Source: a virus (lineage: Duplodnaviria > Heunggongvirae > Uroviricota > Caudoviricetes). Taken from it: DNA of 43,871 bases. Location of the stretch: the IMG/VR virus record IMGVR_UViG_3300001282_000006; one strand, given 5' to 3'. The first letter of the stretch is position 1; each line of letters opens with the position of its first letter. The position numbers and the translations under genes were made by a program. Shown one piece after another: positions 8,246-32,253 of the stretch. The notes under the pieces were generated by a model. That model ran no database searches. It was given only the letters and a program-made list of their open reading frames with translations, and was not told the DNA's origin.

Positions 8246-8317
8246 TGCGGGGTAGAGCAGGGGTAGCTCGCTAGGCTCATAACCTAGAGGTCGGAGGTTC
8301 GAATCCTTCCCCCGCTA
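8246..8317 (+). tRNA. tRNA-fMet (CAT)
   Basis: Cloverleaf; anticodon arm ctagg-ctCATaa-cctag; mismatched 1:72 pair. Confidence 0.9.
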
Positions 8318-8335
8318 CTAAAAAAATAAAAAATA

Positions 8336-9243: not shown

Positions 9244-9333
9244 TGGCGAATAGCAGTGGTGTCTTATACACACTATACCTGTAGCGGTAACTTGAGATAG
9301 TATCAAACGTGGGTTCGAATCCCACTTCGCCAA
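9244..9333 (+). tRNA. Atypical tRNA-Ile-like gene (TAT), no canonical D arm
   Basis: Acceptor tggcgaa/ttcgcca; perfect T arm gtggg-ttcgaat-cccac; ggtgt-ctTATac-acact. Confidence 0.6.
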
Positions 9334-9341
9334 CAAAAATT

Positions 9342-21911: not shown

Positions 21912-22022
21912 ATGAAAACAATGAATTTAAATATGAACATGAATACACTGACAGTGGTGAATAATACGTTATGTATTAGACCGTCTGAGGGCTTCGTCAT
22001 ATCTAAACGATTTGTTAGTTAA
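21912..22022 (+). CDS. Leader peptide 5, MKTMNLNMNMNTLTVVNNTLCIRPSEGFVISKRFVS
   Basis: First 23 codons use only M,K,T,N,L,V,C,I,R; GTCTGAGGG (21983-21991) is the exact complement of the terminator arm CCCTCAGAC. Confidence 0.85.
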   Translation: MKTMNLNMNMNTLTVVNNTLCIRPSEGFVISKRFVS

Positions 22023-22050
22023 TATAACAAATTTTAATAAAGAATACTCG

Positions 22051-22083
22051 AAACCCTCAGACACAAAATCTGAGGGTTTTTTT
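22051..22083 (+). terminator. Intrinsic terminator of attenuator 5
   Basis: aaaccctcaga-cacaaaa-tctgagggttt followed by a T run. Confidence 0.9.
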
Positions 22084-22098
22084 ATGCTCTTAAAACAA

Positions 22099-22183
22099 CG
22101 GTAGGTACCCGAGCGGTCTTCAGGGACTAGTCTGATACACTAGGTGAGAAATCACAACGTGGGTTCAAATCCCACCCTACCGA
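22099..22183 (+). tRNA. tRNA-Ile (GAT) with long variable arm
   Basis: ctagt-ctGATac-actag; V arm gtga-gaaa-tcac. Confidence 0.8.
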
Positions 22184-22189
22184 CAAAAT

Positions 22190-22262
22190 GGTTTCCTCGT
22201 CCAACTGGATAGGACATCGCTCTTCTAAAGCGAGAATATGGGTTCGAATCCCGTGGAGACTA
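22190..22262 (+). tRNA. tRNA-Arg (TCT)
   Basis: tcgct-ctTCTaa-agcga. Confidence 0.92.
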
Positions 22263-22269
22263 CAAATAT

Positions 22270-22341
22270 TCCTCGATAGCTCAGCGGTAGAGCAAACGAC
22301 TGTTAATCGTTAGGTCCCAGGTTCGAATCCTGGTCGGGGAG
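22270..22341 (+). tRNA. tRNA-Asn (GTT)
   Basis: aacga-ctGTTaa-tcgtt; G73. Confidence 0.95.
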
Positions 22342-22348
22342 CAAAAAT

Positions 22349-22431
22349 GCCGAAGTGGTGGAATGGTAGACACGCTAGCCTTAGGAGCTAGTACCCGAAA
22401 GGGTGTGTGGGTTCGAGTCCCACCTTCGGTA
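22349..22431 (+). tRNA. tRNA-Leu (TAG)
   Basis: ctagc-ctTAGga-gctag; type II body. Confidence 0.95.
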
Positions 22432-22436
22432 CAAAT

Positions 22437-22522
22437 TGATGGGTGTCCTGAGCGGCGAAAGGACCTGGCTGTTAACCAGACGACATTAAAGTCCACCGTG
22501 GGTTCGAGTCCCACCTCATCAG
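22437..22522 (+). tRNA. tRNA-Asn (GTT) with long variable region
   Basis: ctgg-ctGTTaa-ccag; 17-nt variable region; G73. Confidence 0.78.
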
Positions 22523-22528
22523 CAAGAT

Positions 22529-22601
22529 AGTCCTGTAGCTCAATCGGGGGAGCGCCACTGTTACATAGTGGAGGGAGTCGGATCGTAACCGACCGGGACT
22601 A
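22529..22601 (+). tRNA. tRNA-Val (TAC)
   Basis: ccact-gtTACat-agtgg; T loop ATCGTAA. Confidence 0.88.
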
Positions 22602-22607
22602 CAAAAT

Positions 22608-22681
22608 TGGAATATAGCTCAACTGGTTAGAGCATTCGCCTGATACGCGAAAGGTTGTAGGTTCGAGTCCTACTATTCCAA
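22608..22681 (+). tRNA. tRNA-Ile (GAT)
   Basis: tcgc-ctGATac-gcga; canonical body. Confidence 0.95.
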
Positions 22682-22686
22682 CAAAT

Positions 22687-22769
22687 GGTACTGTGGCCGA
22701 GTGGTGTCGAAAGACGAGAGGCACAGATCTGCAAAATCTGTCACACTGGTTCGAGCCCAGTCAGTACCT
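22687..22769 (+). tRNA. tRNA-Cys (GCA) with D-loop hairpin insertion
   Basis: cagat-ctGCAaa-atctg; U73; gtc-gaaa-gac in the D loop. Confidence 0.88.
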
Positions 22770-22774
22770 CAAAC

Positions 22775-22846
22775 GCTTCTTAAGCATTAATGGTGATGCG
22801 CTAGTCTTGTAAACTAGAGAAATCGGATCGTTACCGGTAAGAAGCT
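22775..22846 (+). tRNA. tRNA-Thr (TGT)
   Basis: ctagt-ctTGTaa-actag; T loop ATCGTTA. Confidence 0.9.
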
Positions 22847-22851
22847 CAAAT

Positions 22852-22997
22852 CAGTAGGACCCTATATTAGGTGGTAACTTCTAGAGAAGCCACATAAAGA
22901 ACTGGTCCGGGTTAAAAACCAAACTTGATTATTTGATATTCTAGAAAATGTCATTTAGTTCGGATTGGGAAGGTGGGTTCGATTCCCACCCTACTGT
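22852..22997 (+). ncRNA. 146-nt tRNA-like RNA (acceptor and T arm enclosing a large structured insert)
   Basis: cagtagg (22852) pairs with cctactg (22990); perfect T arm gtggg-ttcgatt-cccac; several internal hairpins. Confidence 0.6.
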
Positions 22998-23003
22998 CAA
23001 AAT

Positions 23004-23075
23004 TGCCTTGTAGCTCAATGGGAGAGCACTTCCTTGACATGGAAGAGGTAGTGGGATCGTTACCCACCAAGGCAA
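23004..23075 (+). tRNA. tRNA-Val (GAC)
   Basis: cttcc-ttGACat-ggaag; T loop ATCGTTA. Confidence 0.9.
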
Positions 23076-23100
23076 CAAAATAATGGATGGTGATTAAGAG

Positions 23101-23173
23101 TGTTACTTCGTGAAATGGTATACACATTTGTCTTAAAAACAAACTTTTGAAGGTTCAAGTCCTTCAGTAAAAT
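23101..23173 (+). tRNA. Degenerate tRNA with TAA (Leu) anticodon but short variable loop
   Basis: Leu-type D arm gtg-aaatggtata-cac; tttgt-ctTAAaa-acaaa; T arm gaagg-ttcaagt-ccttc; one acceptor mismatch. Confidence 0.55.
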
Positions 23174-23200
23174 CACTCTTTAGACTTTCCTCCATTATAT

Positions 23201-23284
23201 GCCGATGTGGCTCAGTGGCGACAGCACTGGTTTTGTAAACCAGAGACGAATAGTCCAACGGGGGTTCGAGTCCCTCCATCGGCT
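23201..23284 (+). tRNA. tRNA-Thr (TGT) with long variable region
   Basis: ctggt-ttTGTaa-accag; variable region agacgaatagtccaac. Confidence 0.82.
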
Positions 23285-23299
23285 CAAAATAAATCACCT

Positions 23300-23383
23300 G
23301 CCTGGGTGGTGGAACGGTAGACACGAGGGACTTAAAATCCCTTGCCCCAAAAGGGCGTGAGGGTTCGAGTCCCTCTCCAGGTA
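23300..23383 (+). tRNA. tRNA-Leu (TAA)
   Basis: aggga-ctTAAaa-tccct; type II body. Confidence 0.95.
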
Positions 23384-23414
23384 CTGAAGTGAAACGAAAG
23401 TTCACTACAAATAT

Positions 23415-23501
23415 CGCGGGGTAGAGTAGAGGTCAAACTCACTGGGCTCATAACCCAGGGTTGCGCAAGTGACACGTCAGGTTCGAATCCTGCCCCCGCT
23501 A
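23415..23501 (+). tRNA. Initiator-type tRNA-Met (CAT) with long variable arm
   Basis: C1 mismatch; ctggg-ctCATaa-cccag (3 GC pairs); V arm gttgc-gcaa-gtgac. Confidence 0.8.
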
Positions 23502-24873: not shown

Positions 24874-26346
24874 ATGAAAAACATCGTAACAAGAATCGCA
24901 CCCTCACCAACTGGACCTTTTGCTCATATTGGTAATGTAAGAACACTATTATATAACTACTTTCTTGCTAAGAAAAGTGGTGGTAAATTCTTTGTGAGAT
25001 TGGAAGACACCGACAGAGACCGTTATACGGCTTCGTTTCTAACATATTTCAAAGATATGTGTGATTGGCTTGGTATAGTACCAGATGGTTCTTATTGGAA
25101 CCCAGATCCTTCTATCGGCTCTTTCACTCAATCAACAAGAGATTATTCTGATAAAGTTAAATTTTTATTAGATAACGAATTTGCTTATTATGCTTTTGAT
25201 TCTAAAGATGATTTAGACTTGGCTCATAAAACAATTCCTAACTTCAAATACGATGCTACAACTCGTATGACTATGAAGAACTCATTAACAATGACTAAAT
25301 CGGATGTTGATGCGGCTATTGCTACAGGTAACTATGTTATTCGTTTTGCTGTAACTCCAGATGTTGATGTTGTAATCAACGATGCTATTTTAGGAGATAT
25401 CACAATCAGTACTAATACTTTAGATGATAAAGTTTTGATTAAGTCAAATGGTATTGGTTCTTACCACCTTTGTAATGTTTGTGACGACCACGATATGGGT
25501 GTTACTCACGTTCTTAGAGGTAACGAGTGGGTAAACTCAACTCCTTTCCATGTTATTCTTTACAAGGCTTTTGGTTGGGATGTTCCAACATTCGCTCATC
25601 TACCTTTAATTATGAATCCAGATGGTAAAGGTAAGTTGTCTAAGAGAACTGCTATGAAGTATGGTATTCCAATTGCGCCACTTGGTTACACTGACGAAAA
25701 CGGTGTTTACAATGATGGTTGGAAAGATTTAGGTTTTGACCCAAAAGCATTTATGAACTATCTTGCCTTAATTGGTTGGAATCCAGGTGCTGAAGTTGAA
25801 ATTATGTCTATGGATGATATGATTAACTCATTCTCTTTAGATAGAGTTCACAAGGCTGGGGCTCGTTTCGATATGGATAAAGCAAAGTGGATGAACTCAC
25901 AATATCTTAAATTAACAGACAATAAAGACTTAATGCCTTATGTCCATGTAGTTGATGATAGATACTCTGATGATAAGTTAGATGCTATTGTTTCATTGGC
26001 TAAAGATAGAGCTGACTTCAAAACTGACTTAAACAAAATTGTTAAATTGTTCTTTGATTTACCAACTATCGATGATAGAAGTAAGTTAGATGATAACTAT
26101 ACAAAAGTTATGTCAGACTTCATCAATAAGATTGATACAATCAACTTTGATGATACGAACTCAATCAAAGACACTATCTCAGCAATCTGTAATGATTTAG
26201 GTGTTAAGATGGGTAAAGTAATGCCTGGTTTAAGAATGGCTTTAGTATCTGGTATTGCGGGTCCGGACTTAATGACAACAATGTCAATTTTAGGTAAAGA
26301 CCAAACTAAGTTGAGAATTAACAACTCGATTGTAGTAATGGCTTAA
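24874..26346 (+). CDS. gltX: Glutamate--tRNA ligase
   Basis: RIAPSPTG..HIGN, RLEDTD, THVLRGNEW, FAHLPLI, KLSKR, C-terminal anticodon domain. Confidence 0.95.
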   Translation: MKNIVTRIAPSPTGPFAHIGNVRTLLYNYFLAKKSGGKFFVRLEDTDRDRYTASFLTYFKDMCDWLGIVPDGSYWNPDPSIGSFTQSTRDYSDKVKFLLDNEFAYYAFDSKDDLDLAHKTIPNFKYDATTRMTMKNSLTMTKSDVDAAIATGNYVIRFAVTPDVDVVINDAILGDITISTNTLDDKVLIKSNGIGSYHLCNVCDDHDMGVTHVLRGNEWVNSTPFHVILYKAFGWDVPTFAHLPLIMNPDGKGKLSKRTAMKYGIPIAPLGYTDENGVYNDGWKDLGFDPKAFMNYLALIGWNPGAEVEIMSMDDMINSFSLDRVHKAGARFDMDKAKWMNSQYLKLTDNKDLMPYVHVVDDRYSDDKLDAIVSLAKDRADFKTDLNKIVKLFFDLPTIDDRSKLDDNYTKVMSDFINKIDTINFDDTNSIKDTISAICNDLGVKMGKVMPGLRMALVSGIAGPDLMTTMSILGKDQTKLRINNSIVVMA

Positions 26347-32177: not shown

Positions 32178-32248
32178 GGTCCTGTAGTTAAACGGCTATA
32201 ATGTCGCCCTGCACGGCGAAGTTCGGAGTTCGATTCTCCGTGGGACCG
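32178..32248 (+). tRNA. tRNA-Asp-like gene with 6-nt anticodon loop (ctgcac)
   Basis: Asp-like body and G73; tcgcc-ctgcac-ggcga, one nt short of ctGTCac. Confidence 0.65.
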
Positions 32249-32253
32249 CAAAA

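Follow-up and report, generated by a model that had tools for sequence, protein, structure and literature searches.

Phage tRNA genes that combine Ile, Asn, Thr and initiator Met anticodons with a long variable arm

Textbooks and reviews restrict the long variable arm of bacterial tRNAs to those for Leu, Ser, Tyr and Sec, and treat it as an identity feature. Here, we describe four tRNA genes with Ile, Asn, Thr and initiator-type Met anticodons that carry such an arm. They lie in a 43,871-nt stretch of viral DNA (Caudoviricetes; IMG/VR record IMGVR_UViG_3300001282_000006), which was analysed over its full length and is called the window below. With a GC content of ~28%, best DNA matches to uncultured phage genomes of 635–735 kb and one 55-kb viral contig at 94% identity, the window is a fragment of a low-GC huge phage. 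ARAGORN finds 32 tRNA genes in it, arranged in three arrays. We regard the four long-armed genes as probably cognate phage tRNAs of type II shape, charged by host enzymes and supplying heavily used codons.

The bacterial type II tRNAs for Leu, Ser and Tyr share with these genes a cloverleaf with 7-bp acceptor and 5-bp T stems (7/5), a stem–loop arm, GNRA-type loops and, by family consensus for three of the four genes, a 3-bp D stem. The arm geometry of type II tRNA-Tyr, with about three unpaired bases on the 3′ side, comes closest. The phage genes differ from this class in their Ile, Asn, Thr and Met anticodons, in acceptor, discriminator and 15–48 marks that are not those of Ser, Leu or Tyr, and in arm stems shorter than those of Ser. 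Class I tRNA-Ile(GAU), tRNA-Asn(GUU), tRNA-Thr(UGU) and tRNA-fMet have the same kinds of anticodon loops, discriminators and acceptor pairs, and for Met the same initiator marks, but their variable region is 4–5 nt long as against 15–19 nt in the long genes, where the D arm is also remodelled.

Allo-tRNAs likewise combine a long arm with a non-Ser, non-Leu anticodon, were discovered in metagenomes and are sometimes polycistronic (PMC5389517). Their acceptor/T geometry is 8/4 or 9/3, their D arms resemble that of tRNA-Sec, and their identity is mostly Ser, with 35 different anticodons in the group (PMC5389517), whereas the long phage tRNAs have 7/5 geometry, one anticodon per family and marks of the cognate type. 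The original prediction had proposed a comparison with allo-tRNAs; given the 7/5 geometry and the fixed anticodon, the four genes do not belong to that group. The nematode nev-tRNAs also place class I anticodons (Gly, Ile) on a class II body, and are Leu-derived and Leu-charged in vitro (PMC3333845); they differ in being eukaryotic and of Leu type, while the phage tRNAs lack Leu marks. Finally, phage-encoded tRNA duplicates have been proposed to sustain translation under host attack, and the published escapes from tRNA-targeting host defences rely on changes in the anticodon loop or stem (PMC10264068; PMC11555353). In the window the anticodon loops equal those of the normal-length copies and it is the body that differs. 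We found no publication that describes a long arm on the Asn, Thr, Ile or initiator tRNAs of phages, subscription-only papers lying outside the search.

Four tRNA genes with a paired extra arm

All four genes are on the plus strand. tRNA-Ile(GAU) occupies 22099..22184 (86 nt), tRNA-Asn(GUU) 22437..22523 (87 nt), tRNA-Thr(UGU) 23201..23285 (85 nt) and the initiator-type tRNA-Met(CAU) 23415..23501; ARAGORN places the last at 23416–23500, and the Rfam ends add C1 and A73 to that call. Against the Rfam tRNA model RF00005 (gathering score 29 bits), the genes score 51.8, 41.8, 60.5 and 45.0 bits, respectively, with E-values of 1e-5 to 1e-10, all above the threshold. In every gene the acceptor stem has 7 bp and the T stem 5 bp, although the Met T stem includes a U49·C65 mismatch; the anticodon loop measures 7 nt and contains U33. 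ARAGORN and Rfam thus agree with the original prediction of four class I-anticodon genes with long variable regions. These regions measure 15, 18, 16 and 19 nt for Ile, Asn, Thr and Met in the ARAGORN partition, compatible with the 13–17 nt given before, the choice of boundary being different. They fold as hairpins of 3–5 bp, two of the four capped by a GNRA tetraloop, and all four genes therefore have the stem–loop in a variable region of at least 10 nt that defines type II tRNAs.

In the Ile gene the arm reads GUGA-GAAA-UCAC with an AAC tail and is accompanied by a 3-bp D stem, C1–G72, A73 and G15–C48. The Asn gene has GAC-AUUAAA-GUC with a CACC tail, together with U1–A72 and G73, and the Thr gene GAC-GAAUA-GUC with a CAAC tail, together with a 3-bp D stem, G1–C72, C2–G71, U73 and G15–C48. 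The Met arm is GUUGC-GCAA-GUGAC, on a body with a C1·U72 mismatch, A73, G2–C71, C3–G70, A11–U24 and a GGG/CCC anticodon stem. Type II tRNAs are expected to have a D stem of 3 bp and a non-Watson–Crick 13–22 pair. RNAalifold gives a consensus D stem of 3 bp for the Ile, Asn and Thr families and of 4 bp for the Met family; for the window Asn gene, ARAGORN draws four pairs as against the three of the family consensus.

Each gene has a twin of normal length on the plus strand, present as originally predicted. The Ile(GAU) twin (22608..22682, 75 nt) and the Asn(GUU) twin (22270..22342, 73 nt, G73) have the same anticodon loops as the long forms, CUGAUAC and CUGUUAA. The Thr(UGU) twin (22775..22847, 73 nt) has G1–C72, C2–G71 and U73, and its loop differs from that of the long gene at position 32 only. 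The initiator-type Met(CAU) twin (8246..8318, 73 nt) shares the loop of its long counterpart and has A11–U24 and a U1·U72 mismatch; it shows two G–C pairs beside the anticodon loop, where the long form has the full GGG/CCC.

To place the genes in related phages, syntenic arrays were fetched with the adjoining GluRS gene (24874–26346, scoring above the NCBIfam cut-off) as anchor. These arrays, from relatives whose GluRS is 50–78% identical, again contain long genes for Ile, Asn, Thr and Met. Three near-complete relatives, G002 (476 kb), G003 (385 kb) and LR756502.1 (642 kb), encode 11, 5 and 6 long tRNAs with class I anticodons, respectively, including Lys(UUU), Lys(CUU), Glu(UUC) and Gln(UUG); these stand beside true tRNAs for Ser, Leu and Tyr and beside twins of canonical form. 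Orthologues of the long Ile gene in L007, G002, L175 and L352 show compensatory swaps in the variable-arm stem.

In pattern scans of IMG/VR, a long initiator-type tRNA turned up on 52 contigs and the D arm of the long Thr gene on 81. ARAGORN confirmed 46 unique long Met and 48 unique long Thr sequences and, among the matches listed, at least 111 for Asn and at least 17–20 for Ile; the fractions given below for the Asn and Ile families have the same basis. The contigs that carry long tRNAs span 4–578 kb, so the trait is not limited to huge phages. We then calculated how often each amino acid's tRNAs are long-armed, using tRNAs that our search patterns had not selected, in a sample biased to loci with at least one long tRNA. 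The share is 97% for Ser and for Tyr and 62% for Leu, followed by Asn (23%), Cys (21%), Ile (17%), Trp (12%), Thr and Met (11% each), Pro (9%), Lys and Glu (8% each), and Ala and Phe (1% each). The original statement that long arms are limited to Leu, Ser, Tyr and Sec thus fails in phage tRNA clusters. Prevalence instead tracks how far the synthetase depends on the arm, by published identity rules (PMC9976931).

Among cellular genomes (one per species), 29 of the 120 matches listed for the Asn pattern are real long tRNA-Asn genes, most of them in dense tRNA clusters, a count that gives no estimate of prevalence. Separately, near-identical single-copy long tRNA-Asn(GUU) genes occur on the cellular contigs L516, L518, L526, L470 and L511, outside tRNA clusters and in one case on an 828-kb contig. 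These have a Leu-like D arm and variable arm with an Asn-type acceptor and G73.

The pairing of the arm is maintained by selection. RNAalifold predicts the variable-arm helix unaided in the Ile (13 sequences) and Asn (18 sequences) sets. In the Ile set, 90.4% of the cells of this helix are paired, compared with 57.9% after shuffling, and the covariation score is 0.865 as against 0.261; the corresponding Asn values are 90.7% versus 61.3% and 0.763 versus 0.250. None of 500 shuffles matches the observed values of either set, and slid controls reach at most 0.33. In relatives with the window's Ile type, the stem GUGA/UCAC becomes AUAC/GUAU or ACAC/GUGU while the GAAA loop remains unchanged. The arm helix of the Ile and Asn sets is therefore a selected structure in which compensatory changes maintain pairing. 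Mean folding energies of the variable regions point the same way, at −2.86 kcal/mol versus −0.70 for shuffled sequences in Asn, −3.81 versus −1.43 in Ile and −2.35 versus −0.60 in Met. GAAA is the commonest loop (78 of 245 hairpins). No helix was called in the hairpin subset of the long Thr family or in the long Met subfamily by MAFFT plus RNAalifold, in which arms of variable length fall out of register; for these two families the evidence is the shuffle-folding test and the visible diversity of the stems.

The original prediction had named introns as a finding that would undo it, and this is very unlikely to be what the arms are. An Rfam scan of the window yielded tRNA only, with no match to an intron family, and the insert is a 10–14 nt hairpin in the variable region kept by covariation, unlike an intron. 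The idea that the genes are decaying duplicates left by recombination inside the arrays gains something from neighbours that share T-arm sequence, such as Leu(UAG) at 22349 and the long Asn gene at 22437, and from irregular members of the array, such as a short AT-rich 'Leu' gene and a 150-nt tRNA-like stretch. It is nonetheless barely credible, since the genes are identical or nearly so in relatives whose proteins are 50–78% identical, all stems show compensatory changes, and the Rfam scores lie well over the threshold. The four genes are confirmed as real tRNAs with an extra arm.

Identity marks and charging

In the phage tRNA sets, long and short forms of one anticodon have a common acceptor profile. 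G73 occurs in 93% of both long and short tRNA-Asn (117 of 126 long forms), and the window gene at 22437–22523 pairs it with GUU, the two elements of Asn identity. The long Thr family (60 members) has G1–C72 in 98% and C2–G71 in 100%; the gene at 23201–23285 carries the complete Thr set of G1–C72, C2–G71, G35 and U36. Long Met tRNAs have a mismatch or weak pair at 1·72 along with G2–C71 and C3–G70, and the gene at 23415–23501 shows all the initiator features (1·72 mismatch, three G–C pairs and A11–U24). The A11–U24 pair, a mark absent from the search pattern, is found in 53% of the long initiator family as against 5% of non-Met tRNAs, a tenfold difference. Long Glu tRNAs have G1·U72 in 9 of 11 cases, the same as short forms, and all five long Gln tRNAs have U1–A72.

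We then scored the tRNAs by a likelihood built from four acceptor and discriminator features, blind to the anticodon. The tRNA's own identity beats Ser in 115 of 126 long Asn, 64 of 64 Thr, 56 of 57 Met and 37 of 40 Ile tRNAs, and the correct amino acid is picked from about 20 for 51 of 64 Thr, 78 of 126 Asn and 37 of 57 Met. The long Asn, Thr and Met genes of the window all score best as their own amino acid without the anticodon. A search with the D arm of the long Thr gene, again without the anticodon, retrieved a Thr anticodon in 50 of 57 unique tRNAs, and in four of the exceptions the finder seems to have shifted the register by one base. A similar body, YGGUAGG-UA-CCCGAG, was found both with GAU and A73 and with GUU and G73. 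As read from sequence, the identity marks say that the Asn, Thr and initiator Met genes would be cognate. The long Ile gene probably is as well, and is the least certain of the four because its body is Tyr- or Pro-like.

The opposite possibility is that the long tRNAs are deliberate mistranslators, charged by SerRS or LeuRS, as originally suggested, or by TyrRS, so that Asn, Thr, Ile or start codons would be read as Ser, Leu or Tyr, in the manner of nematode nev-tRNAs or some allo-tRNAs. SerRS reads mainly arm size and G73, and LeuRS ignores the anticodon (PMC9976931). The long Asn gene has G73, G2–C71 and A3–U70, the long Ile gene has A73 with a Tyr-like D arm and acceptor, and relative G002 has, immediately behind its array, a gene for a LeuRS-like protein of half the normal size, all of which would suit such a role. 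However, the acceptor profiles of the long families are those of the cognate short forms and not of Ser. Ser tRNAs of the same phages have G1–C72, G2–C71, A3–U70 and G73 in about 85–95% of cases and an arm stem of 5–7 bp, features that the long Thr, Met and Ile tRNAs lack; the Asn gene departs from this set by U1–A72 and its 3-bp arm. The arms are also shorter than Ser arms and have other flanking bases. Ser stems are flanked by one unpaired base on each of the 5′ and 3′ sides (1+1), Leu arms have 3 bp and 0+2, Tyr arms 3 bp and 0+3, and the long class I-anticodon tRNAs 3–4 bp and 1+3.

Leu identity fits no better. The A15–U48 pair, a Leu determinant in E. coli (PMC9976931), occurs in phage Leu tRNAs of both shapes (98% of the long forms, 93% of the short) but in 3% of the long Thr family, 94% of which have G15–C48, and A73 is found in 100% of the Leu tRNAs whereas U73 is found in 58% of the long Thr tRNAs. 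The long Ile and Thr genes of the window have G15–C48, in the Ile gene despite its A73, and the Asn gene has G73. For TyrRS, the main determinant U35 is absent from the Ile, Thr and Met anticodons, and the Asn gene has G73 instead of A73. The anticodon is moreover fixed within each family as defined by its body, compared with 35 anticodons in allo-tRNAs (PMC5389517), and the long form is often the sole copy for its codon in a phage locus. Mistranslation by the long tRNAs is therefore unlikely, and as a deliberate function we rate it as distinctly improbable.

The synthetases encoded nearby give the long tRNAs no matching partners. The window encodes only GluRS and GlnRS (32644–34248; like GluRS adjoining the tRNA arrays and above the NCBIfam cut-off), and G003 (95% complete) has no Pfam match of the ThrRS/SerRS, AsnRS/LysRS or IleRS/LeuRS type, the MetRS and TyrRS families not having been searched. 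As G003 keeps long Asn, Thr, Lys and Glu tRNAs without those synthetases, host enzymes must handle them. Within the families searched, dedicated synthetase partners were considered and rejected, because the synthetases found in the window and its relatives do not match the set of long tRNAs. A HisRS/HisZ-like fragment lies near the Lys array of G002. The LeuRS-like open reading frame (ORF) of the same phage (L406 1471–2769, directly after the tRNA array) encodes 432 aa, about half the usual length, scores below the NCBIfam cut-off and apparently lacks the editing domain. LR756502.1 (W01) encodes a non-discriminating AspRS of the aspartate–tRNA(Asn) ligase type (L403 1159–2436, above the curated cut-off).

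Demand for the codons in question is high, with AAU+AAC at 74 and AUU+AUC at 54 per 1000 codons in the ORFs of the window. Directly upstream of the array, on the plus strand, a leader ORF of 36 codons (21912–22022) is followed by an intrinsic terminator with a 12-bp stem (22050–22080), which precedes the first tRNA gene. Apart from one Lys, the first 23 codons of the leader specify no amino acids other than Met, Thr, Asn, Leu, Val, Cys, Ile and Arg, the same set that the array serves. Over 21983–21995, the leader is complementary to the 5′ arm of the terminator at 12 of 13 positions, making 21912–22080 a candidate attenuator of the tRNA operon. The match between leader codons and array ties the array to the decoding of those codons.

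From these observations, we propose that the four genes would encode functional phage tRNAs whose identity is still the one that the anticodon specifies (Ile, Asn, Thr and initiator Met), in a shape marked by a short variable-region hairpin and, by family consensus for three of them, a D stem of 3 bp. They would be transcribed with the rest of the array behind the leader ORF and terminator. Most likely, the host IleRS, AsnRS, ThrRS and MetRS, the last followed by the formyltransferase, would charge them; these synthetases read the anticodon, discriminator and acceptor stem, so that the extra arm would be tolerated. On the ribosome, the long tRNAs would then add decoding capacity for codons much used by an AT-rich phage.

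Several points weigh against this proposal. AsnRS and ThrRS belong to the class II synthetases, which approach tRNA from the side of the variable loop, where an arm might hinder them, and the identity rules applied here are mainly those of E. coli and may differ in the host of this phage. G73, G2–C71 and A3–U70 of the window Asn gene are also Ser features. The long Ile gene is ambiguous, with C1–G72 next to A73 and a CCCGAGCGG D arm; its acceptor scores as Pro first, then Tyr, then Ile (the Ile twin is also indistinct), and its acceptor/T half is nearest to a Tyr tRNA. As the anticodon loops of long genes and twins are alike, there is no sign of the loop changes known to defeat anticodon nucleases, for which this loop is the usual target. 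Lastly, only 34% of the long Thr family have a hairpin, most members having instead an A/C-rich loop of 11–12 nt, and syntenic Thr genes alternate between 4-nt, 12-nt and hairpin variable regions; such switching is as compatible with a tolerated, labile region as with an adaptive one.

Origin and possible roles of the arm

The D arms of the long Asn, Thr and Lys tRNAs resemble each other more than they do the D arms of Leu, Ser or Tyr. In their acceptor/T halves, the long Thr and Met genes come closest to class I tRNAs for their own amino acid, the half of Thr being 81% like the class I Thr(UGU) at the syntenic site in relatives. On these similarities, recent origin as anticodon mutants of Leu, Ser or Tyr genes was rejected for Asn, Thr and Met; for the long Ile gene, its Tyr-like acceptor/T half would make such an origin possible. 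The arm itself may be mobile. One module, GAC-GAAUA-GUC-CAAC, is present on the window Thr gene (23201–23285) and on an Asn gene of G003 (L011 4037–4123), which suggests exchange of arms between genes within arrays.

Whether the arm does anything of its own is a separate question. The guess that we favour, though with low confidence, is that the arm sets the body of the phage tRNA apart from those of the host, so that host factors that read tRNA shape would act on it differently. In a wider form, the long genes would belong to a broad, undescribed phage class of type II-shaped but cognate Asn, Thr, Ile, fMet, Lys, Glu, Gln, Cys and Trp tRNAs, the arm being an adaptive shield or tag, an account we hold only tentatively. 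Just as tentatively, the benefit could be escape from defence nucleases, from tRNA-modifying toxins or from quality-control decay, or else discrimination between phage and host tRNAs.

A plainer account, in which the tRNAs are cognate and functional but the arm is a tolerated insertion, afterwards kept paired only because an unpaired loop is harmful, is possible, although we lean against it. One syntenic Thr(UGU) lineage ranges from 4 nt through an unstructured 12 nt to hairpins while the acceptor and T arms stay constant, and two relatives have a syntenic Thr gene with the normal 4-nt loop and the same acceptor and T arms. Long forms are commonest where the anticodon gives identity and rarest in Ala and Phe, and class I-shaped Leu tRNAs, at 38%, suggest that presence of the arm drifts wherever the synthetase permits. 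Such drift sits less well with families that are large, old and diverse (Asn with its 111 or more unique sequences, for example), with the 1+3 flanks, GNRA loops and similar D-arm style common to different amino acids, and with family consensus folds in which the D stem is remodelled to 3 bp along with the arm. The long forms are also more frequent in viral than in cellular DNA, to judge from the 29 real cases among the 120 cellular matches listed, which is not a measure of prevalence.

The loops shared with the twins are what a decoy of an anticodon nuclease would need, and tRNA arrays have been discussed as anti-defence elements (PMC10264068, PMC12803027). The long genes could on this basis act outside translation, either by using their tRNA shape to lure or soak up host nucleases or toxins that target tRNA, or by serving as tRNA-like regulators, and the same array does contain other odd tRNA-like RNAs. 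We think this unlikely. The acceptor, discriminator, initiator marks and T and D loops are all kept, none of which a pure anticodon-nuclease decoy needs, the upstream leader ORF ties the array to decoding, and most phage loci have no short twin to protect. The last point bears equally on the original view of the long genes as diversified backups: the description as structurally diversified extra copies fits the data, but a backup role for a normal copy is not general, as most of the other phage loci lack a short twin near the long form.

Unusual neighbours and implications

A tRNA-Cys(GCA) gene at 22685..22769 (plus strand), missed by both ARAGORN and the Rfam tRNA model, was read directly from the sequence. 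It has U73 and an extra GUC-GAAA-GAC hairpin within the D loop, and represents the same theme of small hairpins added to tRNA. Six relatives keep the gene; the CUGCAAA loop is invariant among them, the acceptor and anticodon stems show compensatory changes, and a Cys codon is present in the leader ORF upstream of the array.

Further members of the array depart from the standard fold. The 150-nt stretch at 22850–22999 (plus strand) places a tRNA-like acceptor stem and a perfect T arm around two long hairpins (fold z-score −2.84); G001 and G003 share the stretch, and the corresponding site in G002 and LR756502.1 lacks it. The AT-rich 'tRNA-Leu(UAA)' at 23101–23174 (plus strand, 74 nt) has a class I body with a G2·A71 mismatch and flanks that lengthen the acceptor helix (GAGUG...CACUC), and is conserved in G001 and G002. 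Class I-shaped tRNA-Leu genes (UAG, UAA and CAA; 74–76 nt) that keep A73 and A15–U48 recur in relatives (L001 3994–4152; L002 3962–4037, 4229–4304 and 4813–4886; L007 4839–5239), and 38% of the Leu tRNAs in the phage data have no long arm.

Elsewhere on the plus strand of the window, a tRNA-like sequence of 91 nt at 9244–9334 has a 22-nt variable region and a 6-nt anticodon loop, and another at 32178–32249 has an Asp-like body and a 6-nt loop, CUGCAC, that resembles the Asp loop minus one U. G002 has an 86-nt long-armed Met(CAU) gene with the loop CUCAUAU (L023 3257–3342), a candidate elongator or lysidine-type Ile tRNA, and tRNAs with 8-nt anticodon loops (ACAU) stand beside Met genes at L011 4986–5058 and L023 2918–2990. 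For annotation, finders label the long genes correctly by anticodon, yet they miss the type represented by the tRNA-Cys with the D-loop hairpin.

In phage tRNA clusters, then, the variable arm is a movable module, fixed only where a synthetase needs it: it is present on 8–23% of Asn, Cys, Ile, Trp, Thr, Met, Lys and Glu tRNAs and missing from 38% of those for Leu. If cognately charged, the long tRNAs would be natural experiments in how an extra arm is accommodated by AsnRS, ThrRS, IleRS and MetRS, by the formyltransferase and by the ribosomal P site, and ready scaffolds for tRNA engineering. If the arm protects from tRNA-targeting defences, it would give phages a second escape route, through the body of the tRNA instead of the anticodon loop. 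Should it indeed serve as a shield or tag, the long-armed initiator tRNA would be the most striking member of the class.

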